This document shows positions 1,358 to 42,509 of a stretch of DNA of 43,660 bases, one piece after another (positions within the stretch are counted from its first letter, which is position 1; every line of letters starts with the position of its first letter). The notes under the pieces are model-generated. The model had not been told where the DNA came from, did no database searches, and saw only the letters and a list, made by a program, of their open reading frames with translations. The translations under genes were made by a program, and so were the position numbers. Origin of the DNA: an uncultured Candidatus Saccharibacteria bacterium (GTDB lineage Bacteria > Patescibacteriota > Andersenbacteria > UBA10190); the NCBI GenBank assembly GCA_964374055.1, contig CAYJWZ010000001.1:1-43660 (forward strand), written 5' to 3'.

Positions 1358-1485
1358 AAACGGCCATGTTCTCTCGAGAGGAGCTCACACCCTGTGATCT
1401 CCTCTCCACTTCCCAATCCCGGAACGGTTCCGAGATTGGGATGGTGGAAACCAGCATGTTCCTTTGTTCGTTTCAGGAGGTTCAC

Positions 1486-2040
1486 ATGAAAAAGTTTCGT
1501 TACCTGGGACTATTGTCACTACTCATGGTTGCTGTGGTGCTAGTCGTTTATGTTTGCCTATGGCATTTCAGGAAGCCCACCTACCCCGTCACTGTGAACT
1601 ACGCGAGAACCGTGGAGGACATTGCAAAGCACGCCGACTTCTATTTGGACAACTGGTACAGACACCACTTTAACTCTCGCGACATCCCAGTCAAACGCAC
1701 GGGCATACACGAAGTCACGGTCGAAATCGTTCATTTCAACCGCGAGATCTCGACCGACGAAGCGCTCCGCGAGCTCGACCGGATGGGACTGCGCCCCGCC
1801 GATCTTCACGAACTTCTCGCCTATGGCGAGAAGTATCGCAAGCCCGATAGTAGCAAGCCGGTAGCAGCACTCGACTCCTTCTGGGTGTGGCCCGGGTATA
1901 ACCTGCGCCACTATCCATACCTCGGTGCAGCAACCTTTAGAGGATGGTCAGAGGACACCGGCCATAAGTGCGGTGAAGTGACACTGTACTATCACGAGAA
2001 CTGGGATAGTATGTTTCGGTTTGCGGCCGTCCGCAAATAA
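1486..2040 (+). CDS. Membrane-anchored hypothetical protein (184 aa)
   Basis: Start moved to ATG 1486 (MKKFRYLGLLSLLMVAVVLVV...), preceded by AGGAGG (1475-1480); N-terminal TM helix; terminator downstream. Confidence 0.6.
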   Translation: MKKFRYLGLLSLLMVAVVLVVYVCLWHFRKPTYPVTVNYARTVEDIAKHADFYLDNWYRHHFNSRDIPVKRTGIHEVTVEIVHFNREISTDEALRELDRMGLRPADLHELLAYGEKYRKPDSSKPVAALDSFWVWPGYNLRHYPYLGAATFRGWSEDTGHKCGEVTLYYHENWDSMFRFAAVRK

Positions 2041-3958: not shown

Positions 3959-5185
3959 ATGGAAACATCTCTTCCGGCCACGACTTCACCGGTACCACCG
4001 AGGCGCCCAGCCCGCGCCATACTCGGCATTGTTATTTTGCTCGTCTTTTTCGGTGGCCTATTTATTGGCCGCTACGTGTTGCCTGGCCAGCCGGCACCAG
4101 GCGCCCCGCTGCAATTTGTCAGTGTTCAGGAAGGAAAACGCGAATTGGTTTTTCCTACCTTTTGGGAAGCCTGGGATGTACTGCACGAGAATTTTAACGG
4201 CGCCCTCGACATGCCAAAGCTGTATTACGGGGCGGTCGAAGGCATGGTCCGCGCCGCTGGCGACCCGTACACCGTATTTGCCGACCCGGATGCCACTAAA
4301 CAATTTTCGGAAACCCTCTCCGGCAGTTTTTCCGGCATTGGCATCGAGATCGGTCTCCAGAGTGGAGTGATTACCGTCATTGCCCCGCTGGAAGGCTCCC
4401 CAGCCGCTCAAGCGGGAATTAAAACCAAAGATATCATCATTGCCGTTGACAAAAAACCCATCACCGCTGATGCCAGCCTCGATGAAGTGGTGCGTAAGAT
4501 CCGCGGGCCAAAAGGCAGTACCGTCACCCTGACTGTTTTCCATGAAGGTTCAAAAGAGCCAGTCGATATTGCCATCAAACGCGATACTATCGAAGTCGAA
4601 AGCGTGAAGCTGAAAATTGAAGAGGGGATAGCTCACCTTAGCATTACCAATTTCCGCTCCGATACGACTACTGCTTTCAACAACGCCATTCGCGAAATCC
4701 AACGTGCCAAAGTTAAAGGCATGTTACTCGATCTGCGCGGTAACCCCGGTGGTTTTCTGGAAAGTGCCGTGGAAATCTCTTCGCGTTTCCTGCCCGAGGA
4801 TGCGCTCGTGGTCAGCGAAAAAGGCAAAGAAAATAAAGACTTTAAATCAAAAGGTAGCCACCCACTGCTTGATATACCAACTGTCGTTTTGGTTGATAGC
4901 GGCTCCGCCTCGGCTTCGGAAATCGTTGCCGGCGCCCTGGGTGACATTCGTCATGCCCCGATTGTCGGCACCAAAACGTTTGGCAAAGGCTCGGTGCAGG
5001 AGTTTATCAAATTGAAAGACGGCAGCAGCTTGCGCGTCACCGTTGCCAAGTGGTTCACACCCAGCGGACGATCCATTAATGAACAGGGGATAGCACCGAC
5101 CAGTGAAGTCAAAAACGATCCAAACACTGATACTGACGAAGTGCTCGATCGCGCCCGAGCCGAATTGAAAACCATCATTAAGTAA
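3959..5185 (+). CDS. Carboxy-terminal processing protease (S41 family, PDZ domain)
   Basis: N-terminal TM anchor; GIGIEIG PDZ region; DLRGNPGG; SASASEIVAGAL; TFGKGSVQ. Confidence 0.9.
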   Translation: METSLPATTSPVPPRRPARAILGIVILLVFFGGLFIGRYVLPGQPAPGAPLQFVSVQEGKRELVFPTFWEAWDVLHENFNGALDMPKLYYGAVEGMVRAAGDPYTVFADPDATKQFSETLSGSFSGIGIEIGLQSGVITVIAPLEGSPAAQAGIKTKDIIIAVDKKPITADASLDEVVRKIRGPKGSTVTLTVFHEGSKEPVDIAIKRDTIEVESVKLKIEEGIAHLSITNFRSDTTTAFNNAIREIQRAKVKGMLLDLRGNPGGFLESAVEISSRFLPEDALVVSEKGKENKDFKSKGSHPLLDIPTVVLVDSGSASASEIVAGALGDIRHAPIVGTKTFGKGSVQEFIKLKDGSSLRVTVAKWFTPSGRSINEQGIAPTSEVKNDPNTDTDEVLDRARAELKTIIK

Positions 5186-15221: not shown

Positions 15222-15725
15222 ATGACCAACCCGACTAAATTAGCCCGTTTAACCACCGAGACCTACCTGTTATATGGCACCCCCCCGGCGTTGCCGGCCC
15301 ATGTGGTGCCTGAACTACTACAACAGCGCGCCTGTTACGTCACGATTCTGGAAAACCCCGGCCGCCTCATCCGCGGCATGAGTGGTTCGCCACTCCCCAC
15401 TCATCTGACACTCGCCGAAGAAATTATCAAACACACCCTGGCCGCTCTCCACCCGCCGCTGCGCCGGGCCGATCTCCCCCACCTCCTCTTTATCGTGGGA
15501 GTCGTGAGCCATATGCAACGTATTAGCGATGCTTCCCACCTCGATCCGCAGCAATTTGGCCTCTATGTTCGCACCGAACAGAATCAGACGGCCACGGTGA
15601 TGCCCCAGCGGCTCGGCATTGAAACCGGCGATGACCAGATTGCCACCGCCTTACGGGAAGCGAATATTAATCCGCGCCACGTACTACCCACCCTCTATCG
15701 TTTTCGCGTCACCTGGTATGAGTGA
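15222..15725 (+). CDS. AMMECR1-like protein (weak call)
   Basis: RACYVTILENPGRLIRGMSGSPLP loosely matches the AMMECR1 core (..FVTL...LRGCIG..PL). Start ATG 15222 sits 6 nt after TACAAT. Confidence 0.35.
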   Translation: MTNPTKLARLTTETYLLYGTPPALPAHVVPELLQQRACYVTILENPGRLIRGMSGSPLPTHLTLAEEIIKHTLAALHPPLRRADLPHLLFIVGVVSHMQRISDASHLDPQQFGLYVRTEQNQTATVMPQRLGIETGDDQIATALREANINPRHVLPTLYRFRVTWYE

Positions 15726-17280
15726 TCGTTTGGTCGAGGTCGCCCCGGCTGTTCCGTTGAACGCGACTGCTCGCCAAACATACACCTATCGCCTCACCGC
15801 CCCGCCGTCCGAACCACTGCTCTACCGCTCTGTCCGTATTTTACTGGGAAGTCGTCGTACGCATGGCTTTATCATCAGCGAAGCTAGCAAGCTACCCAGC
15901 TATCCACTGAAAACCGCCCACCTTTTAGCGACCGTCGCTTTAACCGCCGCCCAGGTTAGCTTCGCCGAATGGTTGCACACCACCCAACGGGGCGGCTTAG
16001 GCTACACCCTTCGCCTTTTTTCCCCGCCGACCGAGCCTATCGCCGTGTCCAGAAAAAAACACCTAACCCAAAAGCCCCGGGCTATCATTCAGGTCAACCC
16101 TGCCAAGCGGTGGGCTGCACTTGGCCGACAACTGCAACCGTATCTCAAGAAAAAACAGCCGGTGTTAATTATTGTTCCCGAAAAATGGCTGCTTGAACCA
16201 CTGGCCGCCGTGCTGGCCAAAAAACTGGCGTGTTCACCGCTCATTATTCACGCTGGCCTCAAAAAAAGTACGCTCCAGCGGGCCATCCATGCTATTACGC
16301 ACCATACCCCACTGATCATCGGCACCCAAAAAGCGCTTTTTCTCCCCTACCCGGCACTCGGCGCCGTGGTCTTAGAAGCAGAAAATTATCAAACACACAA
16401 ATTGTGGGATCAATATCCCCGCCTCTCCAACTGGCATGGAGCGGAGCAAGTGGCCAGTCTCCACCGCGCTACCCTTATCTATAGCACTAGTTTCCCCTCC
16501 GTCCGACTCTATGGCCGCCTTCAGACCGAAAAAATAAAAAGCATCGGCCGGCTGACAACACTCCCCAAAACACACGTGCTACCTCTCTCCTTTTCTGAGC
16601 GTCAACAGAACCATTTTCTTCCCCGGCCGCTTATTAGTTTAATGCGCGGGTGGTTAAAGAAAAAAAATGTTGGGACTATCGGGCTGGTGCACACCCTCTC
16701 ATTAAACCGCGCCAAAGAGCTTCGCCACACCCTGTATACCGCGCTTGGTCGATCAGCCAATCTGATCGTTGGCACACCCTCTGAAATCACTGGCCAAGCA
16801 AAAAGGCCGTATCAGCAGCTTATCTGGCTCTTTCCAGAAACTATTTTACGCTACCCCGACTATCGTAGCCGTGAACAGGCCTATACCCTACTCCAACGTT
16901 TCGCCCAGCTCCTCCCCCGCCAGCAATCTATATATCTGATCACTCGTTTCCCTCGCCAACTTGAACAGGAATTACTCATCCCTCCTGCCGACTATTTCGA
17001 GCAGGAATTAAAAGCTCGTCAGCGGCTGTCCTATCCGCCGTTTGCCGAAGTGGTACGCCTGACCATCACTGACCGTACGGCCAAACAAGCTGAAGCGGCC
17101 GCCGCCAAAGTCCGCCAACAACTAGAAGCCCATGGGCTGGTACGTGGACCACTGGCCGCGCTGCACAACACGAAGTCGGAACGCCATCTTATTCTCCGTG
17201 GGCCGCTGGCCACGCTGACCGCACTCTATCACGATATAAAAATCAGCCGCGCTGACCTTGACCCCTTCAGACTTCTATAA
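15718..17280 (+). CDS. PriA (primosomal protein N')-like protein lacking ATPase and zinc-finger motifs
   Basis: N-terminus VEVAPAVPLNATARQTYTYRL and C-terminal RLSYPPFAEVVRLTI are PriA-like. Expected GSGKT is absent, DEEH is replaced by LEAENY, and there are no CxxC pairs. ATG 15718 overlaps the upstream stop. Confidence 0.55.
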   Translation: MSDRLVEVAPAVPLNATARQTYTYRLTAPPSEPLLYRSVRILLGSRRTHGFIISEASKLPSYPLKTAHLLATVALTAAQVSFAEWLHTTQRGGLGYTLRLFSPPTEPIAVSRKKHLTQKPRAIIQVNPAKRWAALGRQLQPYLKKKQPVLIIVPEKWLLEPLAAVLAKKLACSPLIIHAGLKKSTLQRAIHAITHHTPLIIGTQKALFLPYPALGAVVLEAENYQTHKLWDQYPRLSNWHGAEQVASLHRATLIYSTSFPSVRLYGRLQTEKIKSIGRLTTLPKTHVLPLSFSERQQNHFLPRPLISLMRGWLKKKNVGTIGLVHTLSLNRAKELRHTLYTALGRSANLIVGTPSEITGQAKRPYQQLIWLFPETILRYPDYRSREQAYTLLQRFAQLLPRQQSIYLITRFPRQLEQELLIPPADYFEQELKARQRLSYPPFAEVVRLTITDRTAKQAEAAAAKVRQQLEAHGLVRGPLAALHNTKSERHLILRGPLATLTALYHDIKISRADLDPFRLL

Positions 17281-22566: not shown

Positions 22567-23454
22567 ATGGCAAAAGCCTACCAACCGACTGATCAGATCA
22601 TCATTGAAAGCCGCCCCGACGGAGAAGAAGTTGCTATCCACAACCTACTCTATGGCGGCCCCGGCGGACGAACCATTTTCCAGGGCAAAGTTCCTTTGAC
22701 GAACTTTGTTTCAGGCCTGGCCCGACACGTTGTAAGCTACGCGCCGCTCAACCTTGGCCTGATTCCAGCTGGCATGACACTCCGGCTGCTGGAGCGCAGC
22801 AATGGCTGGTATCTGTTCGTGGTTGAGGAAACACCCGGTATCCACACCGTTCAATGGGTGCGTGACGATTCGAAGGCAAAATATGGTTCCGGTGCGACTT
22901 ATCGGACGGTTACCCTGGCGTTTCCCTGGATCTATTTCTTCCTGGTATTGTCGCCCACCGGAAACTTCTCCCAGCTCAACAGTGTCTACTTTCGCAACAG
23001 TCCCCTGACCTCGCTTGACGACCCGCTGTATGATCCGCACTTCTTCAACTGCTCAGTTGACGCGTATGGCGGCCATTGTTGGATCTGTGTCCAGTCCACA
23101 CACATTGAGGGTCACTCCTTACTGGCTCGCGTTGAGTCCTTCATTCAGTGGTTTTGGAACTCGGGCTTTAACGCCAGTTCTGAAGCCCATGAAACAGCTA
23201 AAGGCAGCTTCTGGACGTACAACCGTGACCGCATTGCTGATCAACGCGTCCAATCAATCGCTGCCTGGGAAAAGGCGTCGCGTGCCAATCCGAATTTTGC
23301 GGTCACTGTTCCGTGGATCAACTCCAACCACACCCCGCTCACCCTATGCCGGGAATTGACTGTCGCCAGTCTACCCGGTTCAGGATCACCGTGCACAGCG
23401 CGCGGCTTCGCCAACCTGATCCAAAACCTCAGTAAAGAAAAGGAGGACAACTAG
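22567..23454 (+). CDS. E2 (UBC)-like conjugating-enzyme candidate (295 aa)
   Basis: AAGGAG (22556-22561) RBS. Beta-rich core (WYLFVVEE, IHTVQWV, YRTVTLAFPWIYFFLVL, SVYFRN) followed by PHFFN-x9-C171-W-I-C174, reminiscent of HPN...C. First gene of the JAB/E1/Ubl cassette. Assignment is by context and pattern only. Confidence 0.45.
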   Translation: MAKAYQPTDQIIIESRPDGEEVAIHNLLYGGPGGRTIFQGKVPLTNFVSGLARHVVSYAPLNLGLIPAGMTLRLLERSNGWYLFVVEETPGIHTVQWVRDDSKAKYGSGATYRTVTLAFPWIYFFLVLSPTGNFSQLNSVYFRNSPLTSLDDPLYDPHFFNCSVDAYGGHCWICVQSTHIEGHSLLARVESFIQWFWNSGFNASSEAHETAKGSFWTYNRDRIADQRVQSIAAWEKASRANPNFAVTVPWINSNHTPLTLCRELTVASLPGSGSPCTARGFANLIQNLSKEKEDN

Positions 23455-33713: not shown

Positions 33714-33959
33714 TTATCGTCCAAACACTTTTTGCTCGAGCCGCGTGACGCGCGCCGGAATGTCTTGCAACGGCTTCAGCATCGCCTCAATCCGCTGTAG
33801 GGTATCCAGAATTTTGTCTATCGTTACCTCGACCCGGTCAAGCCTGGCCTCTACCTTATCTATTCGCCCGCCCAAGTCACTTCTCGCATCGTTAATCGAA
33901 GACTGCAGCTGCTCGGTTACTTCCCGAAACTCTCGCCTTGTAATTGGCCCATCATCCAT
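33714..33959 (-). CDS. Small coiled-coil protein (81 aa), hypothetical
   Basis: Heptad-like pattern; ends with RLEQK; divergent from a similar small ORF at 34093. Confidence 0.45.
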   Translation of the reverse strand: MDDGPITRREFREVTEQLQSSINDARSDLGGRIDKVEARLDRVEVTIDKILDTLQRIEAMLKPLQDIPARVTRLEQKVFGR

Positions 33960-34092
33960 TCCAGTAGTATACCATGTGTCCCCGGTTGAACGTTAATCGA
34001 ACCATTCTTGACTCAACCAAGCTCCGGCAGTTTCTTAGTGTGCAACAACACATGATTTGCTCCTCATCTTCGCCCGTGGAATAATACAAGCA

Positions 34093-34350
34093 ATGACCAA
34101 GAAGAAACCCACCAACCAGCCACCCGTTACCCACGATCAGTTGAAAGCCGTGGTTGCTGCGGCCGAAGCTCGCCTCCTCGCCAAGATCGAAGACAGTGGC
34201 GAAGAAACCCGACGCCACCTGGCTGTCGCCGTTGAAACCATCTCCAGTGAAGTCCGTGGCGCCTTCCACGATGCCACTGCCGTCCTGACTGATAAAGTCC
34301 AAGATCACGAGAGCCGCCTCACCGCCCTCGAACACCAGCCACGCCGCTAG
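34093..34350 (+). CDS. Small coiled-coil protein (85 aa), hypothetical
   Basis: ATG 34093 lies 7 nt after TGgAATAAT (34077-34085); helical, ends RLTALEHQ. Confidence 0.45.
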   Translation: MTKKKPTNQPPVTHDQLKAVVAAAEARLLAKIEDSGEETRRHLAVAVETISSEVRGAFHDATAVLTDKVQDHESRLTALEHQPRR

Positions 34351-34570: not shown

Positions 34571-34637
34571 CTGCCCCCAGTGTTACCGCAAACTGACAGG
34601 TTACTCAAGTTTTATAACGGCCTGTGGAAAACATTTC

Positions 34638-34646
34638 TGCTATGAT
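34638..34646 (+). promoter_or_regulatory. Possible extended -10 promoter of the riboswitch transcript
   Basis: TGc-TATGAT; no convincing -35. Confidence 0.3.
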
Positions 34647-34659
34647 AACCATGCTCCTT

Positions 34660-34810
34660 TGAACTTCGATAGAACACGTGGTTCGCTGCCACGCTTAGTC
34701 CGCCAGCTGGCGGATAGGTCCAGGGAAAGTCGGTGCAAATCCGACGCTGGTATGCCGCAACTGTAATTTCTGCTACCAAGCAGAATAAGTCAGAGCGCCT
34801 GGGTTCTTAA
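34660..34810 (+). promoter_or_regulatory. Cobalamin (B12) riboswitch aptamer
   Basis: Core matches the RF00174 consensus as I recall it: AGGGAA (34722-34727), GTC-GGTGCAAATCC-GAC (34732-34742), GCTGG..GCCGCAACTGTAA (34754-34766), P6-like hairpin TTCTGC-taccaa-GCAGAA, B12-box-like AAGTCAGAGCGCCTGGG (34787-34803). Confidence 0.75.
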
Positions 34811-34851
34811 TACTGTTACCTTCGTGCATAAGGATATTTTTTTATTTGTGT

Positions 34852-34887
34852 AAACTCCTTGTGCGCTCGCCAAGGAGTTTTTGTTTT
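34852..34887 (+). terminator. Riboswitch expression platform: terminator hairpin that also sequesters the RBS
   Basis: AAACTCCTTG (34852-34861) / CAAGGAGTTT (34871-34880) followed by TTGTTTT. The AAGGAG in the 3' arm is the only RBS for ATG 34888. Confidence 0.7.
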
Positions 34888-37800
34888 ATGAGTGAAATCC
34901 AAACACCCGACCTTGAAATGCTAGAAGAATTGCCAGAAGTGGCTGCTTTTGATTCGAAGAAAGAAGATGAGCCCGACGAAGATAAGAAAACAGAAGAAAA
35001 AGAACAGGTTGAAGATGAGGAAGCGGCAGACTTTGAAGCCGCCGAGGAGGAGCTCATGGCCATAGCTGGCTGCAGTCGGCTCGAGATAGTATCAGCTGCC
35101 GAAACATACGAAGTGACGGTCGAGCCCGATGGCCGCGCTTATATCGGCACGAGTCTGATTCCCAATTTTGTCCCGGAGCCCAGCCACGTTGGGGTCGATG
35201 ACAAAGGCATAGAACACGGCATGTACGCCAGAGTTATGACGGGCCAGCGCACCGAGGGCGATAAAAAAATATACACCTTCATGGTACAGAACTACCGAAT
35301 ACCCGAAACCGAGCAACCAGCTGAAGAAGTTTCCAAAGAAGAACTATTACTTACCGAACCATTGATCATGGAACAACCGGGTGAACAGGTATGGAGTGAA
35401 GAAGAGAACCTCGCTCCAGCCGAACAAGTTGAAAATAAAGCAGCTGGATATGCGACTGATGCAGTAGAATTGCCCGGGGAAATAACCGAAGAAGTTGTTA
35501 TCGAAGCGTCGCCGCTAGTAGCCGAAACTGATCTAGAAACGAGCATTATTGTACCCCTGCCTAAAACAAGTGCTATCGAGGCTCCCCTACCAACCGGTGT
35601 CGAACAACCAATAGCCATTCCCCCAGTCGAAACAATACTCCAAGAAAGCGACAAAAAGCCAGACATACCTCAAGGAATTGAGGTTATTGCTGATGTTCGA
35701 GAACAAGAAGCAACACCACCAAAAAGCATTGAAGTGCCGATCGTAGAAAACACCCTAGAACAATCAGAGATCATTAGTCAGCCACAGGTTGAAATCACGA
35801 CCCTTGAAACCCCAGCTAAGCCCCCTGTTCAAAATTATGAGGTGAATACGGTTGTGCCAGTTGAAGTAAAAAGCAAAAAGTTTAAAGTTACTGAAATTGT
35901 CGTGCCGCAGGAGGTAACAAAGATAGAAAAAAATACGGTGACAGTTGAGCAAGCTCCCCCTCAACCAAAAAGTATCATGGCTGAAGTAACAGCACGTGAG
36001 ACAACTCCAATCTCTATAACCCCTAGCGAAAATCTGAGCACCACAAAAGAAACACAGGCACCTGAGAATGATTTCGTTCCCAAAGAGTTGTCACCCACAC
36101 CAGCAATCACCGCACCAGGCCACAACGAAGTACAAGTGCCAATAGAAACAAGAAAGTTACAACCAGTAGTAGTTGAGTCAGCAAGTACTGAGTTACCTAT
36201 CACTGTCCCTATAAGCGCAACAGAAAAACCCACAATTCTTGTGGATGATTTAGCAGTTACCTACGAACCGTCGCCTTCACGTCTCGTGGTGCCGGAAGTA
36301 ACAATAAACGATGATTCAGTAGCTACTCTTGAAGTGTCGCCAAAGCCAGCGCAGGCAATTGAAAGATCACCCAAAACTATCAAGCAAACCCCAAGCAATA
36401 TTTCTCAACCTATTTCTGTCTCAAAAGTCGAAACGCATGCTCAACCACCTGTCGTAGAGAAAACTACACCAGTCTCTAGCGAAGTACCTGTTACCACTAT
36501 TGAAGTAATTTCAGTTGACCAACCAGAACAAGACAGAATAGTTGAAGATGACTTTGTAATCACACAAGAGCCTGCGCCTGTCTTCAACAGTGAAAAAGTG
36601 CCCTTTGTCAATGAAGTGCCATCTCAAAAAGTAGCCATATCAGAAACAGTAGTTGAGTCAGCAAGTACTGAGTTACCTATCACTGTCCCTATAAGCGCAA
36701 CAGAAAAACCCACAATTCTTGTGGATGATTTAGCAGTTACCTACGAACCGTCGCCTTCACGTCTCGTGGTGCCGGAAGTAACAATAAACGATGATTCAGT
36801 AGCTACTCTTGAAGTGTCGCCAAAGCCAGCGCAGGCAATTGAAAGATCACCCAAAACTATCAAGCAAACCCCAAGCAATATTTCTCAACCTATTTCTGTC
36901 TCAAAAGTCGAAACGCATGCTCAACCACCTGTCGTAGAGAAAACTACACCAGTCTCTAGCGAAGTACCTGTTACCACTATTGAAGTAATTTCAGTTGACC
37001 AACCAGAACAAGACAGAATAAAAGTAGCCATATCAGAAACAAGCGAGTCACCAACAAAAAACATGGAACCAATCCATGTTATTCCTGTTAATGAGCCAAA
37101 GGTACCGCCACTGGTAGCACCCGAAGCCATTACTCAAGAAAAAACTAGCAACCCTGACATAACTCCCCCAGAAATAGTTGTTGATCTTGTGCAGCCAATT
37201 CTTAAAGTGGAGTCGCCCGCGCCCATTGCACCAACTGAAATGGTTGAAACTCAGCCGTCCCCAACAACAGTTTCGCCTGTTGTATTCACGCCACCTGAAA
37301 CAAAGTCACCACCGGCAATCACCGAACAAGCACCAACAACCGCACCAGAGCTAACAACCTTTAATCCACAAACCGACATAAAAGAACCTGCCCCGGCCGC
37401 ACCCCCTGTCCCATTACAAGCGCCAACTACACCAGCGCCGCTGGTAACACCACCCCCACCACAGAATTTCACACCCCAACCCCCAATGCCCCCAGTGAGC
37501 ACTAAGTTTGTAATTCCGGAAGCAATCAGTCAGTTAACCCCACCCGAAATAATAAGTGCTGTCTCGCAACCCTCTTCTTCACCAGAATCATTCGTACCAA
37601 TCCCGCCCGAAAGACCCCAACCAGAAGTTCGTCCACTCTCTCCAGAAGTAGCCGAAGAAATTACTGAAATCATGCAAACCCCGCCGATCGTTCAACAAGA
37701 AAATACTCCACCACTGTTCCCGCCCGAAATAATCATTCGCGACCGCAAAGGCATCATTACGCAGCCGTTCTATGAAGTTATGGCCGCCCTCGAAGCCGCG

Positions 37801-38250
37801 CCACGCGGCACCACTATTGAAGTAGTCGGCCCCGTTGATGAAGACGGTAAAGTGCAAGATGTTACTGTATTGGAGCACATACAGGATAGCCAAACCGGTG
37901 AACCAATAATTCAACAACGCTTTTTTGAACGTCCGGTAGCCGAGCAAAGCGAAGCCACGCCCCCGGCAACTAATTGGGAGGTGGCCACGGTTGCTACCGG
38001 TGTGTTTGCAGTCCAAAGCGAAAAACAGACTTTCTCGCCTATTGTTATTACTGAGCGCGACCTGATCACCGTGGCCGAAACTGCCAGTAGTCGTACTACC
38101 AAAGCGCCGCGAGGTGCAAAACAAGAAGCCGCTCCTTTCGCTACCAAACCGCAACCAGCGCTCGTACTTACTGTATCTGATCAAACCACCACAGCCACGG
38201 CCGCAACGACCGTTCCACCAATCAGTATAAGAACCTATGCCGCAAACTAA
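34888..38250 (+). CDS. Giant acidic, Pro/Glu/Val/Thr-rich repeat protein (1120 aa), hypothetical
   Basis: ATG 34888 (MSEIQTPD...) with AAGGAG 11 nt upstream. Single long ORF; no signal peptide or TM seen; 160-aa in-frame duplication; Pro-rich stretch near residues 800-900. Confidence 0.7.
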   Translation: MSEIQTPDLEMLEELPEVAAFDSKKEDEPDEDKKTEEKEQVEDEEAADFEAAEEELMAIAGCSRLEIVSAAETYEVTVEPDGRAYIGTSLIPNFVPEPSHVGVDDKGIEHGMYARVMTGQRTEGDKKIYTFMVQNYRIPETEQPAEEVSKEELLLTEPLIMEQPGEQVWSEEENLAPAEQVENKAAGYATDAVELPGEITEEVVIEASPLVAETDLETSIIVPLPKTSAIEAPLPTGVEQPIAIPPVETILQESDKKPDIPQGIEVIADVREQEATPPKSIEVPIVENTLEQSEIISQPQVEITTLETPAKPPVQNYEVNTVVPVEVKSKKFKVTEIVVPQEVTKIEKNTVTVEQAPPQPKSIMAEVTARETTPISITPSENLSTTKETQAPENDFVPKELSPTPAITAPGHNEVQVPIETRKLQPVVVESASTELPITVPISATEKPTILVDDLAVTYEPSPSRLVVPEVTINDDSVATLEVSPKPAQAIERSPKTIKQTPSNISQPISVSKVETHAQPPVVEKTTPVSSEVPVTTIEVISVDQPEQDRIVEDDFVITQEPAPVFNSEKVPFVNEVPSQKVAISETVVESASTELPITVPISATEKPTILVDDLAVTYEPSPSRLVVPEVTINDDSVATLEVSPKPAQAIERSPKTIKQTPSNISQPISVSKVETHAQPPVVEKTTPVSSEVPVTTIEVISVDQPEQDRIKVAISETSESPTKNMEPIHVIPVNEPKVPPLVAPEAITQEKTSNPDITPPEIVVDLVQPILKVESPAPIAPTEMVETQPSPTTVSPVVFTPPETKSPPAITEQAPTTAPELTTFNPQTDIKEPAPAAPPVPLQAPTTPAPLVTPPPPQNFTPQPPMPPVSTKFVIPEAISQLTPPEIISAVSQPSSSPESFVPIPPERPQPEVRPLSPEVAEEITEIMQTPPIVQQENTPPLFPPEIIIRDRKGIITQPFYEVMAALEAAPRGTTIEVVGPVDEDGKVQDVTVLEHIQDSQTGEPIIQQRFFERPVAEQSEATPPATNWEVATVATGVFAVQSEKQTFSPIVITERDLITVAETASSRTTKAPRGAKQEAAPFATKPQPALVLTVSDQTTTATAATTVPPISIRTYAAN
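36168..36540 (+). repeat. 373-bp direct repeat, copy 1 (100% identical to copy 2)
   Basis: Line-by-line comparison with 36648-37020; offset is exactly 480 bp (in frame). Confidence 0.95.
36648..37020 (+). repeat. 373-bp direct repeat, copy 2
   Basis: Identical to 36168-36540. A 21-nt motif AAAGTAGCCATATCAGAAACA flanks it on both sides (36628-36648 and 37021-37041). Confidence 0.95.
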
Positions 38251-39916
38251 CACCCCGCTCCGGATCCGCGATCTGCTGCGCGAAGATATAGGTTATGAAC
38301 GCCTGCCACTCATCGAACGCCAGGCTGAACTTGACCGCTTGGCCCGTCGCTTGCGCCAACGTCGCCACAATAATCTCATTATCACTGGCCCGGCTGGTTG
38401 TGGTAAAACTGCCCTCTTCCACGGTTTTGTTGAAAAGCTTGCCACCGGCGCCTACCGCCAGCTAGTCGCCATGCCATACCTTAGTATATCCGCCACCGAG
38501 CTCAGTCGGCGCTTACTTGAGGCCCCGGATCGGGAAACAGTTTGTAACTATCTGGCCGCTGCCTTCAGGACATTGCCGACCGTAACCGTACTCATTGACG
38601 ATGCCGAACTTATCCTCGATGAACTGCACAGCCGTTCAGAGTTTACTCAAATCTTCGAAACTTTTTTGATCTCTGCCCGTTGCCGCCTCGTGCTCGTTCT
38701 TCCTCAACATCGTCTAACGATCATAAAAGAAAAATTCGATGCCGCCCTCACCAGTTTCGATATCCTCACCCTTGATCCACTCTCTAGTGCCGCCACCGAA
38801 CAACTCGTCATCCAACAGACTCCTCTGCTCGCTCAGCGCTATCACCTCCGCATGACCCGCGATGCCATCCAGACAATTGTTGAATTCAGTCAGCAACTAC
38901 CCATGCACTACGCCTTGCCCGAACGTGCCCTGCGCTTTTTTGAAGAAGTCTGCGCGGCTACTTCACTTCAGAATAAATCTGTCGTGGAGCGTAGCGATGT
39001 CCAAGCAGTGTTTCGCCAGCACGTTGGCCTACCGGCCCTTCAGCAAAATTCTGAACAAACCAATCGTTTACGTCAGCTGCCCGATATTCTAGCCAGCCAC
39101 GTGCACGGCCAGGCACACGCCGTTACCATAGTAGCTAAAACCGTTCAAGCCTCATGGCTCGGCCTGAAAGACGGTCGCCGCCCCTTTGGCTCTTTTTTAT
39201 TCCTCGGGCCCTCCGGTGTCGGCAAAACTGAACTGGCCAAAGTGCTGGCTCGTGAAGTGTTTGGTAGTGAGCAAACTTTTCTGCGCTTGGATATGTCAGA
39301 ATTTGCCGAGTCACATAACGCGCAGCGTCTTCTCGGTGCCCCACCCGGCTATGTCGGCTATGAAGCCGGTGGCCAGTTAACCAGCTTTGTGGAGCAACAC
39401 CCCTTTTCGTTGATTTTGCTCGACGAAATTGAAAAAGCGCATCCCTCTCTTTTTGATTTGTTCCTGCAAATTCTGGACGATGGTCGCTTAACCGATGGGC
39501 ACGGCCAGACAATCGATTTCACCAAAACCATCATTGTTGCTACTTCGAATGTCGGCACTTCTTACATCGTCGATGAAGCTGAACAAGGAAAAGATATCAC
39601 CAGTCATTCCTGGTTTAATGAGTATCTTTTGCCGCTCCTCTTGGAACGGTTCCGCCCCGAGTTTATTAATCGCTTCTCCGCCACCCTGGTCTTTAAGCCA
39701 CTCTCTGATGAAACGCTCTTGGCCATTGCTCACCAGGAACTACGTCGTCTCGAGCACCAAGTGCGACCACGCGGTATCACCTTACAATTTTCTGATGACT
39801 GGCTGCGTCAGCAAGTGCACCACTACCGCCACCCGCTTTTTGGTGCCCGTCCGTTGAAACGTTTCCTGGAACAAACATGTGAAAATCTTGTAACCGCTAA
39901 ATTATTACAACTATGA
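38237..39916 (+). CDS. Truncated Clp/Hsp100-type double AAA+ ATPase (559 aa; no N-domain or middle domain)
   Basis: D1: NNLIITGPAGCGKTAL, VLIDDAELI. D2: FLFLGPSGVGKTELAKVLA, PPGYVGYEAGGQLT, LILLDEIEKAH, ATSNVG, FRPEFINRFSATLVFKPL, GARPLKRFLE. ATG overlaps the upstream gene by 14 nt. Confidence 0.8.
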   Translation: MPQTNTPLRIRDLLREDIGYERLPLIERQAELDRLARRLRQRRHNNLIITGPAGCGKTALFHGFVEKLATGAYRQLVAMPYLSISATELSRRLLEAPDRETVCNYLAAAFRTLPTVTVLIDDAELILDELHSRSEFTQIFETFLISARCRLVLVLPQHRLTIIKEKFDAALTSFDILTLDPLSSAATEQLVIQQTPLLAQRYHLRMTRDAIQTIVEFSQQLPMHYALPERALRFFEEVCAATSLQNKSVVERSDVQAVFRQHVGLPALQQNSEQTNRLRQLPDILASHVHGQAHAVTIVAKTVQASWLGLKDGRRPFGSFLFLGPSGVGKTELAKVLAREVFGSEQTFLRLDMSEFAESHNAQRLLGAPPGYVGYEAGGQLTSFVEQHPFSLILLDEIEKAHPSLFDLFLQILDDGRLTDGHGQTIDFTKTIIVATSNVGTSYIVDEAEQGKDITSHSWFNEYLLPLLLERFRPEFINRFSATLVFKPLSDETLLAIAHQELRRLEHQVRPRGITLQFSDDWLRQQVHHYRHPLFGARPLKRFLEQTCENLVTAKLLQL

Positions 39917-40125
39917 CTGATCCGGCCGCCGCTTTCCAAAAAGTTAAGCCACTCCTCTCGCCAGCAGTCGTGGCGGAGATTGAACAGCGCCTCAAACGTT
40001 TTCGGGCTCGTCATGTTGAGCAACACCGAGCTGCCACAAAGCGCGCGCCGGTAGTAACGACCCCTTGGGTTATGCGCCCCAAGGCTCCGCCCCGTCCCCT
40101 TAATCGTTCCTACTTTACCCTATGA
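39913..40125 (+). CDS. Small hypothetical protein (70 aa)
   Basis: ATGA overlaps at both ends (39913-39916 and 40122-40125) indicate translational coupling. Confidence 0.5.
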   Translation: MTDPAAAFQKVKPLLSPAVVAEIEQRLKRFRARHVEQHRAATKRAPVVTTPWVMRPKAPPRPLNRSYFTL

Positions 40126-41423
40126 ACCACCGTGTCCTCTTGGGTAAAACTACCTTTCGTAATGAAGAATATAACGTCTCACTCAGCCCGTCGGATCGGC
40201 TGCGGCATGTCTACCTCATCGGCAAAACCGGCACCGGAAAATCTACCCTGTACCAAAACATGATGCGCCAGGATATCTTGGCCGGTGCCGGCTGCTGTTT
40301 CGTGGACCCCCACGGCGAAGCCATTGACTGGCTGCTCGGAACTATCCCGCCGCACCGTCTCGAAGACGTGGTTGTGTTTGATCCCTCCGACACCGACTGG
40401 CCGCTCAGCCTCAATTTGCTGGAGTGGCATACTCCCACTGAAAAAGATTTTCTGGTCGCTGAAGCCATTGAAATTTTCTACAAACTATTTGATCCGGAAA
40501 AAACCGGCGTCATCGGGCCGCAATTTGAGCACTGGATGCGCAACGCCGCGCTCACGGTGATGGCCGATCCCGACGGCGGTACGTTGATTGAGATCCCGCG
40601 TTTGTTTACCGACCCGGCCTTTGAAGTGAAAAAACGCCGTTTCGTGACTGATCCGGTCGTCAAAGCCTTCTGGGAACAACAAATGACAAAAACCTCCGCT
40701 TTTCATCGTTCCGAAATGCTGAATTACTTCACTTCCAAATTTGGCCGCTTTACGACCAACAGCTTAATGCGTAATATTATTGGCCAGCGCCAGAGCACTA
40801 TTTCACTGGCCGATGCCCTGGAACAGCAAAAAATTGTGCTGGTCAACTTATCGAAAGGTGAAATCGGCGAGACCAACGCTTTTATGCTCGGCCTTATTCT
40901 CATGACGAAACTCCAGATGGCCGTCATGAAGCGGGCCTCGGTACCAGTCGAAGAACGCACCCCCTTCTATCTCTATGTCGATGAGTTCCATAATGTCATG
41001 ACTGATGCCTTTATTGACATGCTATCCGAGGCGCGTAAATATGGCCTGGCCGTACACCTGGCCAATCAATATATTACTCAGCTCACCGAATCAGTCCGCA
41101 ATGCCGTACTGGGTAACGCCGGTACCCTCATCGCCTTTCAAGTCGGCGCCCAGGATACCGCCGTGCTGCTCCGCGAATTTGATACCCAGCAAGGCAAGCG
41201 CCGCTCTGACCAATTAAAAGAAGACGACTTCTTATATTTAGCCCGCCACCATTTCTACATTCGCCCGGTCATTGAAGGCATAACCCGCCAACCGTTTCGC
41301 TGTGTCGGTTTTCCACCCGAAGCGGCCACCGGCAATTTGTCAGCCAATGATGTTCGCACTGTCTCCCGCCTCCGCTTCGGCCTGCCTGTCCGGCAGGCAG
41401 GCCTCCCCAGTGCTATACTATAA
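40122..41423 (+). CDS. Soluble VirD4/TraD/TraG-like (type IV coupling protein-type) P-loop ATPase
   Basis: HVYLIGKTGTGKSTL..FVDPHGE (Walker A context), FYLYVDEFHN (Walker B), EARKYGLAVHLANQYITQL. No N-terminal TM helices. The 3' end runs through a 21-nt palindromic repeat. Confidence 0.65.
   Translation: MNHRVLLGKTTFRNEEYNVSLSPSDRLRHVYLIGKTGTGKSTLYQNMMRQDILAGAGCCFVDPHGEAIDWLLGTIPPHRLEDVVVFDPSDTDWPLSLNLLEWHTPTEKDFLVAEAIEIFYKLFDPEKTGVIGPQFEHWMRNAALTVMADPDGGTLIEIPRLFTDPAFEVKKRRFVTDPVVKAFWEQQMTKTSAFHRSEMLNYFTSKFGRFTTNSLMRNIIGQRQSTISLADALEQQKIVLVNLSKGEIGETNAFMLGLILMTKLQMAVMKRASVPVEERTPFYLYVDEFHNVMTDAFIDMLSEARKYGLAVHLANQYITQLTESVRNAVLGNAGTLIAFQVGAQDTAVLLREFDTQQGKRRSDQLKEDDFLYLARHHFYIRPVIEGITRQPFRCVGFPPEAATGNLSANDVRTVSRLRFGLPVRQAGLPSAIL
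41381..41401. repeat. 21-nt palindrome CCTGCCTGTCCGGCAGGCAGG, copy 1 (inside a CDS 3' end)
   Basis: Identical copy at 42452-42472; encodes LPVRQAG in frame. Confidence 0.85.
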
Positions 41424-41426
41424 AGC

Positions 41427-42383
41427 GTGTCGTCTCCCTCTCATTTCGTCGAGCTTAACAAGGTTGCGGCCGGCTTTAACGCCCCGCCTTCCTTCTTCGC
41501 GCGGCTAAAAGGCACCCGACCTCCTGAACTCAATGTCCTGCGTGACATTAGTTTTAGCCTGCAAGCCGGGGAACAAATAACACTCTTTGGGTTGGAAGCG
41601 GCCGGTAAATCAACCCTGCTCCGCTTATTGGCCGGGGCACTGCGCCCCGCCAAGGGTACTATTCTAATAAACGGCCAAGCGCCACACCGTATACTCCATG
41701 CCGCCGCCGGCTATGTTTCCAGCGAAGAAACTGAACCCAATGGAGAAACCGCCATCCAAATTTTACATGCCTTTGGCAAAACACACGGGCTTACCAACTT
41801 ACCATCCCGCCTTGGTGAACTAACCGAACCACTGAAACTCGCTACTATCCTGCATCGCCCCGTCGGCAGTTTGTCGACTATCGAACGGTTGCGGTTAAAC
41901 GTAGCCAAAGCTGCTTTATCAAAGGCTCCCGTAATCCTATTAGACGATGTCGCTGATGCTCTTGGCCCCGAAGAAGTAAAAAAACTCTGCCGTACTGTGT
42001 TTGATCATCGCACGCTCGTTGTGGCCACGCGCGTTGCCACTACGGCCGATACACTCGCCTTACCGATACTGATATTGGAACATGGTACCCTCGCCCGGCA
42101 CGGCACCATTGCGGAACTAGCCGAAGAAGTAAATTGCCCAACCACCGTTGATATTTATGTTGAGGGACTACGGTACGGCCTATTACGGCAAATCAAAAAT
42201 CATCCCGGCGTGAAGAACGTCCGCCTGCTGCCCAGCACCGATTTTGCCGGCCAGCGTCTGCAAATTCACTTGGCATCCCAACACTACTTGCCTGCCCTCT
42301 ACGACCTCATCACCCAAGCGCCTCTCTTACGTATCGAAGAACACCCCATTTCCCTGGCCGACATCCTCCGGCATCTTTCCTGA
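41427..42383 (+). CDS. ABC-type ATPase with degenerate signature and Walker B motifs (DrrA-like with C-terminal domain)
   Basis: GLEAAGKSTLLRLLAG (Walker A), LSTIERLRL in place of LSGGQ, VILLDDVADAL (DD instead of DE). GTG start 3 nt after the upstream stop. No permease gene on this strand. Confidence 0.6.
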   Translation: MSSPSHFVELNKVAAGFNAPPSFFARLKGTRPPELNVLRDISFSLQAGEQITLFGLEAAGKSTLLRLLAGALRPAKGTILINGQAPHRILHAAAGYVSSEETEPNGETAIQILHAFGKTHGLTNLPSRLGELTEPLKLATILHRPVGSLSTIERLRLNVAKAALSKAPVILLDDVADALGPEEVKKLCRTVFDHRTLVVATRVATTADTLALPILILEHGTLARHGTIAELAEEVNCPTTVDIYVEGLRYGLLRQIKNHPGVKNVRLLPSTDFAGQRLQIHLASQHYLPALYDLITQAPLLRIEEHPISLADILRHLS

Positions 42384-42390
42384 CCCCTTC

Positions 42391-42500
42391 CCCTCTCCCT
42401 GTATAGGGAGAGGGTAGGGTGAGGGCAGTTTCTGATACTCAAACCCTCATCCCTGCCTGTCCGGCAGGCAGGCTGACCTTCTCCCTATCCAGGGAGAAGG
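42391..42500. repeat. Array of four different GC-rich hairpins in a convergent intergenic region
   Basis: CCCTCTCCCT-gtat-AGGGAGAGGG (42391-42414); GGGTGAGGG..CCCTCATCC (42417-42452); CCTGCCTG-tccgg-CAGGCAGG (42452-42472); CCTTCTCCCT-atcc-AGGGAGAAGG (42477-42500). Confidence 0.75.
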
Positions 42501-42509
42501 GATACAAAG

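Follow-up and report, generated by a model that had tools for sequence, protein, structure and literature searches.

A widespread Patescibacterial operon led by a cobalamin-clan riboswitch encodes an acidic protein, a Clp-like ATPase and a soluble coupling-protein-like ATPase

We describe a five-gene operon from an uncultured Candidatus Saccharibacteria bacterium (GTDB lineage Bacteria; Patescibacteriota; Andersenbacteria; UBA10190), found in a stretch of 43,660 nucleotides, hereafter the window (contig CAYJWZ010000001.1 of assembly GCA_964374055.1, forward strand, positions 1 to 43,660). Its core consists of a riboswitch of the cobalamin (B12) clan, an acidic protein, a Clp-like ATPase, a small protein and an ATPase resembling type IV coupling proteins (T4CPs), and is conserved in dozens of Patescibacterial lineages. 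We tentatively propose, with somewhat less than even confidence, that this widespread operon is induced by B12 scarcity and that its two ring ATPases thread a tail-tagged acidic protein, probably for export. Related loci and metagenome contigs compared with the window are labeled L001, L002 and so on; the window, L001 and L002/L003 together form what we call the window clade. The features of the operon are as follows.

34622 to 34703, + strand: 5' leader that contains a small hairpin (GTGGTTCGCTGCCAC); nearly identical in L001, kept in part in L002
34704 to 34840, + strand: aptamer of the cobalamin-riboswitch clade with its 3' regulatory hairpin (CCTT-CGTGCAT-AAGG, 34819 to 34833)
34852 to 34887, + strand: expression platform, a hairpin (AAACTCCTTG/CAAGGAGTTT; 34852 to 34880) followed by a T-run
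34888 to 38250, + strand: gene 1, a 1120-aa acidic Pro/Glu/Val/Thr-rich protein, largely low-complexity, ending ...PISIRTYAAN
36168 to 36540 and 36648 to 37020, + strand: exact 373-nt copies within gene 1, separated by a 107-nt spacer
38237 to 39916, + strand: gene 2, a 559-aa ClpB/ClpA-like double AAA+ ATPase, overlapping gene 1 by 14 nt
39913 to 40125, + strand: gene 3, a 70-aa protein with an ATGA junction to gene 2
40122 to 41423, + strand: gene 4, a 433-aa soluble T4CP (VirD4/TrwB/TraD)-like hexameric-type ATPase with an ATGA junction to gene 3
41427 to 42383, + strand: gene 5, a 318-aa non-canonical ABC ATPase with a GTG start, +3 nt after gene 4
42389 to 42502, no strand assigned: array of four G+C-rich hairpins between the convergent gene 5 (ABC) and ftsX

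Evidence that these genes belong together comes from their conservation. In a neighborhood survey of 80 loci from species-representative genomes, the loci that we term type (a) carry the leader, an acidic gene (~300-1120 aa), a Clp-like gene (~553 aa), a small gene (~70-125 aa) and a soluble T4CP-like gene (~425 aa). This gene order recurs in at least 60 loci of many lineages, bordered by conserved housekeeping genes: uvrD, SIMPL and yebC at one end, ftsX, ftsE and prfB at the opposite end. The window itself has uvrD, a SIMPL protein gene, yebC and tRNA-Arg on the 5' side of the operon and the convergent ftsX on the 3' side. Of the 50 type-(a) loci with upstream DNA present on the contig, 49 matched the riboswitch model described below, each exactly once, on the coding strand and immediately before gene 1; L045 carries a degenerate look-alike. 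Type-(b) loci instead hold an ~850-aa paralogue with an N-terminal transmembrane (TM) helix among large unknown genes, have no Clp-like gene and no riboswitch, and gave no match to the model in the 21 loci scanned. An earlier reading of the window from sequence alone, the original prediction, had treated the Clp-like, T4CP-like and ABC-like ATPases as one unit and had named chance juxtaposition as the case against it. Chance juxtaposition is contradicted by the conserved order and riboswitch position, and a riboswitch-led conserved unit stands. The trio does not, since among the compared loci gene 5 is found only in the window, L001 and L002/L003 and is therefore a clade-specific addition.

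At Rfam gathering thresholds (GA), no riboswitch was matched anywhere in the window, and a relaxed search placed AdoCbl-II at 34710-34808 with 26.4 bits (GA 36.5; E = 0.0011), a weak match if considered by itself. A covariance model (R2) built from 35 leaders, all outside the window clade, matched 34704-34840 with 61.6 bits (E = 5.5e-13). At orthologous loci the Rfam models themselves suffice: the leader of L004, from a Doudnabacteria genome, scored 53.5 bits for AdoCbl (GA 50), and five of seven further loci exceeded the thresholds with AdoCbl at 67.3 (GA 50), AdoCbl-II at 42 and 37.9 (GA 36.5) and Cobalamin at 38.2 and 31.8 bits (GA 31.5); the loci with elements above threshold are L004, L017, L038, L041, L010 and L055. 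An alignment of 30 leaders displays the cobalamin core, namely GGGAA, a GGTG...TCC hairpin, GCCGCAACTGTAA, a variable hairpin and AAGTCAG, followed by a conserved 3' hairpin, TCCCGAGCAGGA, which takes the form CCTTCGTGCATAAGG in the window clade. Across these 30 homologues, 77.9% of the cells in the stated structure are paired, helices 2-4 are 90-100% paired with compensatory changes, and the covariation score is 0.397 compared with at most 0.187 for slid partners, a value equaled in none of 500 shuffles. Because orthologous loci pass the Rfam thresholds, the covariation holds and an independent model matches the window, the originally proposed riboswitch survives, by sequence, as a divergent member of the cobalamin clan. 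The element shares with Rfam clan CL00101 (Cobalamin RF00174, AdoCbl RF01482 and AdoCbl-II RF01689) the core motifs, the 3' regulatory hairpin and the terminator platform, and at other loci its subtype precedes homologues of B12 binders. In contrast to known cobalamin riboswitches, however, the genes controlled here lie outside the usual classes of transport, biosynthesis and B12-independent isozymes.

The surrounding leader suggests how the switch may act. The conserved block 5' of the aptamer (34622-34695 in the window, 90-165 in L001 and 5960-6035 in L002) probably holds the promoter and the leader start; a sigma-70 consensus scan called no promoter in 34622-34703. The platform hairpin (dG -15.7) buries the Shine-Dalgarno sequence AAGGAG (34873-34878) in its 3' arm, and its T-run reaches the start codon. 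The 5' arm shows complementarity to the region of the aptamer's 3' hairpin (-18.1 kcal/mol as a duplex, z = -4.9), and 35 of 39 orthologous leaders have a hairpin with a T-run after the aptamer. The 3' segment of the aptamer hardly changes between lineages, and its downstream partners are variable. We infer a classical OFF switch: bound B12 would tie the 3' segment to the aptamer, so that the terminator/sequestor forms and the operon is OFF. Under B12 scarcity, the 3' segment would pair with the terminator's 5' arm, and transcription of the operon would follow, with translation through its coupled junctions. The expression under B12 scarcity that was originally suggested is thus plausible, as the platform architecture fits an OFF switch.

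Additional evidence places the operon among B12-related genes. A scan of metagenome contigs for this riboswitch subtype gave 97 matches, about a quarter of which precede the acidic/Clp/T4CP cluster. Other matches precede genes for DUF4430 proteins, DUF4430 being the C-terminal domain of the B12-binding transcobalamins (PMC4350170), and several precede unannotated Cys-rich, zinc-ribbon-like protein families. One further match is followed by a small basic ORF and then by a gene for a 545-aa protein that, by its sequence, looks like a transcobalamin-type binder. On 12 of the short contigs that carry the 97 matches we found nrdR, nrdJ or cobA. In L031 (10531-14827), the T4CP-like gene is followed directly and on the same strand by nrdR (179.8 bits, cutoff 124.65), nrdJ for the AdoCbl-dependent reductase (TIGR02504, 581.9 bits, cutoff 399.95) and a cobA-like gene for a corrinoid adenosyltransferase (149 bits, under the 167.75 cutoff). 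From these neighbors it follows that the organisms depend on imported cobalamin for deoxynucleotide synthesis. The operon is probably part of their B12 regulon.

The product of gene 1 is the candidate client of the ATPases. As originally described, the 1120-aa protein is acidic and rich in Pro (13.7%), Glu (12.6%), Val (11.2%) and Thr (10.4%), which together make up 48% of its residues; its pI is 4.3, it has no TM-like segment, and it matches no family in Pfam, NCBIfam, PHROG or PADLOC. Its 58 positional orthologues, which we define as the gene 1 family, fall into 27 sequence clusters and range from ~300 to 1120 aa, with a median pI of 4.47, 16-29% Asp+Glu, few aromatic residues and no TM segments; the non-acidic members are two outliers, one of which (L005) is a truncated ORF. 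Apart from its C-terminal tail, the family is hypervariable. Tails end in -AA in 35 of 58 members and in -A in 45 of 58, with the motif G-I-T-L/M-R/K-R/I-A-A, compared with an -AA ending in ~2% of the other long ORFs of these loci once the first genes are subtracted. Moreover, 11 further metagenomic examples, found through the riboswitch pattern with a Clp-like gene 3' of them, all end in -AA. The tail of the window protein, ...PISIRTYAAN, is the same in its nearest relative, whereas that of L002 reads ...QMAA.

The ssrA degron, which Clp unfoldases such as ClpX and ClpA engage (...LAA-COOH), is recognizable by a hydrophobic-Ala-Ala carboxylate at the C-terminus, and 35 of the 58 gene 1 products end in a hydrophobic/basic-Ala-Ala-COOH tail. 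They differ from that system in that the tail is encoded in the gene rather than added by tmRNA, in that the window protein has an extra Asn (YAAN), and in that the neighboring unfoldase lacks a protease-docking loop. No tmRNA gene was found in the 60 loci searched for a native ssrA tag to compare. The original idea that the large protein is a dedicated substrate gains from the conserved ssrA-like tail, but the proposal is still one that we infer. Elsewhere in the window, 3959-5185 (+) encodes a tail-specific protease of family S41 (Ctp-type) that carries a PDZ domain and is positionally unlinked to the operon. Ctp-type proteases recognize non-polar C-terminal tails, ssrA-like ones included, and this protease could, from its sequence, also act on the Ala-Ala-tailed protein. 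A separate observation concerns L141, in which the first gene after the riboswitch codes for an acidic protein of 504 aa with the C-terminus ...PQAA, and two paralogous membrane proteins (362 and 334 aa) replace the Clp-like and T4CP-like genes (in the oriented copy, the riboswitch ends at 4296 and the ORFs lie at +59, +1629 and +2884); the membrane proteins are possibly an alternative partner set for a tail-tagged protein.

In other respects the original account of gene 1 needs correction. Its giant size is not a family trait: the window protein is the longest member, in part because a 373-nt stretch is doubled, which reflects either a recent duplication or an assembly artefact, and the L001 orthologue is ~150 aa shorter. 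The folded N- and C-terminal modules of the window protein likewise have no detectable counterpart in most orthologues. At least 28 gene 1 orthologues have in common an N-terminal module of ~93 aa, and its HMM did not detect the window, L001, L002 or L013 proteins, so that homology between the window modules and the main group finds no support in this search. Pieces from both termini of six orthologues matched no family even at E <= 10, and a database search for homologues returned only the protein itself for the full length and nothing for the C-terminal 241 aa. As these searches yielded no homologues, there was no alignment for folding, and a single-sequence AF2 model of the C-terminal 216 aa was unusable (pLDDT 43).

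Gene 2 encodes a minimal relative of the class-1 Hsp100 proteins. It matches Pfam AAA_2 (186.7 bits) and ClpB_D2-small, and residues 247-557 match ClpB structures in the PDB with E = 5.5e-87. The NCBIfam models for ClpB, ClpA and ClpV all match (~1e-93 to 1e-105), far under their equivalog cutoffs; the ClpB match (352 bits, cutoff 1232) spans only ClpB residues 525-832, the D2 domain. Across 56 orthologues, conservation is high in D2 (GPSGVGKT, LLDEIEKA and the GYVGY pore loop), where the Walker A and B motifs are intact, and low in D1. The Clp/Hsp100-type double AAA+ architecture of the original prediction is therefore canonical in D2, including D2-small, but divergent in D1. Inspection by eye of the region from sensor-1 (ATSN) to FRPEFINRF in the 56 orthologues found no conserved ClpP-docking (I/L/V)-G-(F/L) tripeptide. 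The protein thus shares the D2 AAA_2 module, the GYVGY loop and D2-small with ClpB, ClpA and ClpV/TssH of type VI secretion, and the missing ClpP-binding loop with ClpB and ClpV. In contrast to them, its 559 aa leave no space for an N-domain or for the coiled coil of an M-domain, its D1 shows little conservation and its scores stay under the cutoffs; its genomic partner, furthermore, is a T4CP-like ATPase rather than a type VI secretion system (T6SS) sheath or DnaK.

The assignment of gene 4 as a VirD4/TraD-like enzyme without a membrane anchor is borne out by sequence, model and structure comparison alike. It matches Pfam TrwB_AAD_bind (PF10412) with 40.1 bits (GA 20.5), TraG-D_C above threshold and also DUF87, and its Walker motifs, GKTGTGKS and YVDEF, are invariant. 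An AF2 model built from 67 sequences (pLDDT 93.6) contains a helical block at residues 105-234, and Foldseek aligned it with TrwBdeltaN70 (TM 0.61-0.62), Cagbeta (TMq 0.67) and HerA (0.54-0.57). The protein starts ~30 residues ahead of Walker A, and the model is without hydrophobic N-terminal helices. Its best NCBIfam match is SXT_TraD (56.5 bits, cutoff 366). More than 6000 relatives at 57-89% identity are present in the database, the named ones belonging to Parcubacteria, Doudnabacteria, Portnoybacteria, Wolfebacteria and similar groups. Gene 3 belongs to a family of small genes that, in 44 loci, separate the Clp-like from the T4CP-like gene and whose products (~70-125 aa) are predicted coiled coils with a C-terminal YF motif (YFEQKF or NYFxKK; LNRSYF in the window). 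The family HMM aligns the window protein over KPLLS...LNRSYF with a weak 9.7 bits, and the protein has no TM segment and no family in Pfam, NCBIfam, PHROGs or PADLOC.

Together, genes 3 and 4 recall the T4CPs VirD4, TrwB, TraD and Cagbeta, which combine an FtsK/HerA-type nucleotide-binding domain bearing Walker A/B with an all-alpha inserted domain; here a small helical protein is encoded directly 5' and translationally coupled. Gene 3 may resemble CagZ of the CagZ-Cagbeta complex (PDB 8dol), a lead taken from the PDB title. In contrast to T4CPs, gene 4 is unanchored, lies under all NCBIfam T4CP cutoffs, has no type IV secretion system (T4SS), relaxase or oriT genes nearby (T4SS and relaxase genes are absent within +/-9 kb of the T4CP-like loci), is paired with an Hsp100 under a B12 riboswitch, and has the 57-89% identity typical of a housekeeping gene. 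The chromosomal Patescibacterial T4SS is widespread. A previous study of Patescibacteria counted 5,713 T4CP homologues, only 148 of them near virB4, and stated that exaptation of t4cp 'cannot be ruled out' (PMC12102498). In the same study, a T4CP homologue of Ca. S. epibionticum was non-essential for epibiotic growth (PMC12102498).

On the reading that we favor, the acidic, largely unstructured gene 1 protein would be a dedicated client whose ssrA-like tail is engaged by the ClpB-like pore. Because the Clp-like ring lacks the ClpP-docking loop, the client would be threaded rather than degraded. The T4CP-like hexamer would then take over the unfolded chain, assisted by the small coiled-coil protein in the role of an adaptor or regulator, and the chain would most likely be delivered to an envelope channel encoded elsewhere, for which the chromosomal Patescibacterial T4SS is the obvious candidate. 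In the window clade, the catalytically degenerate ABC ATPase may have been added as an accessory subunit. The purpose would be tied to the B12 supply for AdoCbl-dependent NrdJ, for instance through an exported, fast-evolving protein that scavenges corrinoids or is directed at the host. The export and the scavenging by an episymbiont that were originally suggested thus stay hypothetical. Acidic, unstructured, fast-evolving proteins with C-terminal signals fit the substrates of C-terminal-signal secretion systems, and the traits of gene 1 also fit host-facing proteins. A more specific version holds that a minimal Hsp100 and an exapted soluble T4CP, induced by B12 starvation, recognize the encoded ssrA-like tail and export the hypervariable polyanionic protein via the chromosomal T4SS, and that this protein captures corrinoids or makes the host release them, feeding the NrdJ-type reductase that DNA synthesis in these organisms requires; we consider it possible but rather doubtful.

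A partial analogy is offered by the ESX/type VII systems, whose Pro/Glu-rich substrates with C-terminal signals are handled by two ATPases, EccA of the AAA+ type and EccC of the FtsK/HerA superfamily. In M. tuberculosis, moreover, the PPE2-cobQ-cobU operon has a PPE gene under a cobalamin riboswitch. The likeness is one of analogy only: the substrates are non-homologous, EccB, EccD, EccE and MycP are absent here, and EccC is a membrane-anchored multi-domain protein.

Several observations weigh against the threading and export proposal. The window riboswitch misses the curated thresholds of Rfam clan CL00101, and the choice between ON and OFF logic is deduced from complementarity alone, a signal of high strength within the window clade and of moderate strength outside it (z < -1.5 in 16 of 39 leaders). 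The adjacency of nrdJ to the cluster occurs in one lineage only, L031 and L063 counting as one because they are 96% identical. In the acidic proteins, a search for B12-binding domains detected none and an HMM of the riboswitch-linked DUF4430 proteins found no match, which leaves the originally suggested B12 binding by the N- and C-terminal modules without support from these searches. The window tail reads ...TYAAN rather than -AA, and 23 of the 58 tails deviate. Gene 4 lacks the N-terminal membrane anchor of canonical coupling proteins, the cluster contains no channel, relaxase or T4SS gene, and Patescibacterial T4CP genes lie mostly far from virB4 (PMC12102498). The client, the hand-over and the B12-related purpose are, finally, steps suggested by features of the sequence.

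Some of these points would suit a cytoplasmic B12-economy machine, in which the rings remodel proteins, strip their cofactor or service NrdJ and its cofactor, and the acidic protein is an adaptor, scaffold or regulator that inserts its tail into a ring, with no export involved. No membrane protein or signal peptide is encoded anywhere in the cluster, a TM scan of its proteins agreeing with the original remark that a membrane component is absent, and the T4CP-like protein is soluble. The nrdR, nrdJ and cobA genes lie directly 3' in L031, and AAA+ activases that pull on the tails of client enzymes are established, for example the CbbX-type Rubisco activase. Nevertheless, we judge this alternative unlikely: the strong variation of gene 1 in sequence and length is less typical of housekeeping adaptors than of proteins that are secreted, surface-exposed or facing the host, the recognized role of T4CP-like ATPases is to receive substrates for secretion, and Pfam and NCBIfam scans returned no homology to B12 chaperones or reactivases.

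Alternatively, the operon might serve DNA or nucleotide salvage. At low B12, NrdJ would fail and the T4CP/HerA-like hexamer would take up or process DNA for deoxynucleotides. The polyanionic gene 1 protein would mimic DNA or serve as a regulator, and the Clp-like ring would remodel it. The nearest folds are indeed those of the DNA-pumping ATPases TrwB and HerA, Pfam calls the matched region DNA-binding, NrdJ is present in these lineages, and gene 1 proteins are strongly polyanionic. B12 riboswitches, in addition, classically switch on B12-independent substitutes for B12-dependent steps. However, a structural match does not establish DNA as the substrate, no nuclease, competence or DNA-binding gene lies in the cluster, and the Ala-Ala tail together with a protein-threading Hsp100 suggests a protein client. 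We regard this explanation as quite improbable.

That the cluster is left over from a conjugative or mobile element, or is a chance neighborhood with a spurious riboswitch call, is hardly credible: the T4CP-like fold, the PHROG match of the long-form paralogue and the sub-threshold window riboswitch would fit it, but the same order between housekeeping flanks in so many lineages, the lack of relaxase, integrase or viral-contig relatives, and a riboswitch backed by an independent model, covariation and Rfam matches in orthologues all contradict it. Two further candidates were rejected. A defense system was set aside as PADLOC gave only generic ATPase matches, and a prophage as a scan of viral contigs found no relatives of the cluster; the housekeeping flanks argue against both.

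The architecture of the operon in the window agrees with the original description. By the ORF list, the five genes are co-directional on the + strand with junctions of -14, -4 (ATGA), -4 (ATGA) and +3 nt. The mechanical ORF of gene 1 opens at TTG 34846, and the ATG at 34888, which sits 10 nt past AAGGAG, is the start kept in L001. The reported lack of an internal terminator also holds, as terminator-like sites within the unit are not in excess (14 compared with 11.9 +/- 4.2 in shuffled sequence); the same is true of promoter-like consensus matches (11 compared with 8.3 +/- 3.5). At its end, the predicted four-hairpin array folds with a minimum free energy of -73.1 kcal/mol (z = -6.58), and none of 200 shuffles was equally stable. 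It lies in the 127-nt spacer between gene 5 and ftsX, its hairpins carry no T-runs, and by sequence it is likely a bidirectional, non-canonical terminator.

Gene 5, the addition of the window clade, matches Pfam ABC_tran with 71 bits, above GA, and has a Walker A motif. Its signature reads LSTIER and its Walker B LLDD, confirming the motifs first noted, and ATR stands instead of the H-loop His. These oddities are kept in two orthologues (L001 and L002) at 54-82% identity and therefore reflect selection rather than decay. Unlike ABC transporter ATPases, gene 5 is thus without LSGGQ, the Walker B D-E, the H-loop His and a cognate permease, none being encoded at the locus.

Beyond the operon, several side observations were made. 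Among the zinc-ribbon families that follow the riboswitch subtype (L098, L111, L100, L097, L087, L110 and others), proteins of ~320-610 aa carry a C-terminal CxxC...CxxC and match no Pfam family except for a weak Prok-RING match; in L098 and L111 the gene is followed by nrdR-nrdJ. These families look like a second uncharacterized part of the B12 regulon. In L135, a long T4CP-like paralogue lies ~2.2 kb 3' of a riboswitch-led zinc-ribbon gene. The type-(b) loci (L014, L018, L032, L036, L043, L047, L053, L056, L057, L071-L076, L078, L079, L081, L083 and L084) encode a paralogue with a 400-aa unknown domain that matches phrog_5156, next to proteins of up to 2043 aa, some with Metallophos; a Pfam scan of these neighbors was uninformative. 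In the window, ORFs without a Pfam family lie at 15619-17280 (+), 22567-23454 (+), 1366-2040 (+), 33714-33959 (-) and 34057-34350 (+), the last two between yebC and tRNA-Arg, just 5' of the operon.

In summary, a full-text literature search (riboswitches of the candidate phyla radiation (CPR)/Patescibacteria, VirD4, ClpB) found no description of this operon, in line with the original statement that no system of such composition had been described. We rate its parts as members of known superfamilies and their assembly as a new kind of system with a deduced function, because the definitions of T4CPs, ClpB and ABC transporters fail to cover its ATPases and the riboswitch controls genes outside the usual classes. 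A large part of bacterial diversity belongs to the Patescibacteria, which live on other cells and are unable to make most cofactors; to our knowledge, their routes of cofactor acquisition are largely undescribed. The compact natural B12-responsive switch could become a genetic tool for Patescibacteria. Our findings give an 'orphan' T4CP-like family a conserved context (tail-tagged acidic protein, minimal Hsp100, small partner), as well as a putative regulatory input (cobalamin) and, in one lineage, adjacency to nrdR/nrdJ/cobA. B12 binding, tail threading, export and a B12-conditional need thereby become testable questions, and the cobalamin regulon of these organisms emerges as one of largely uncharacterized proteins.

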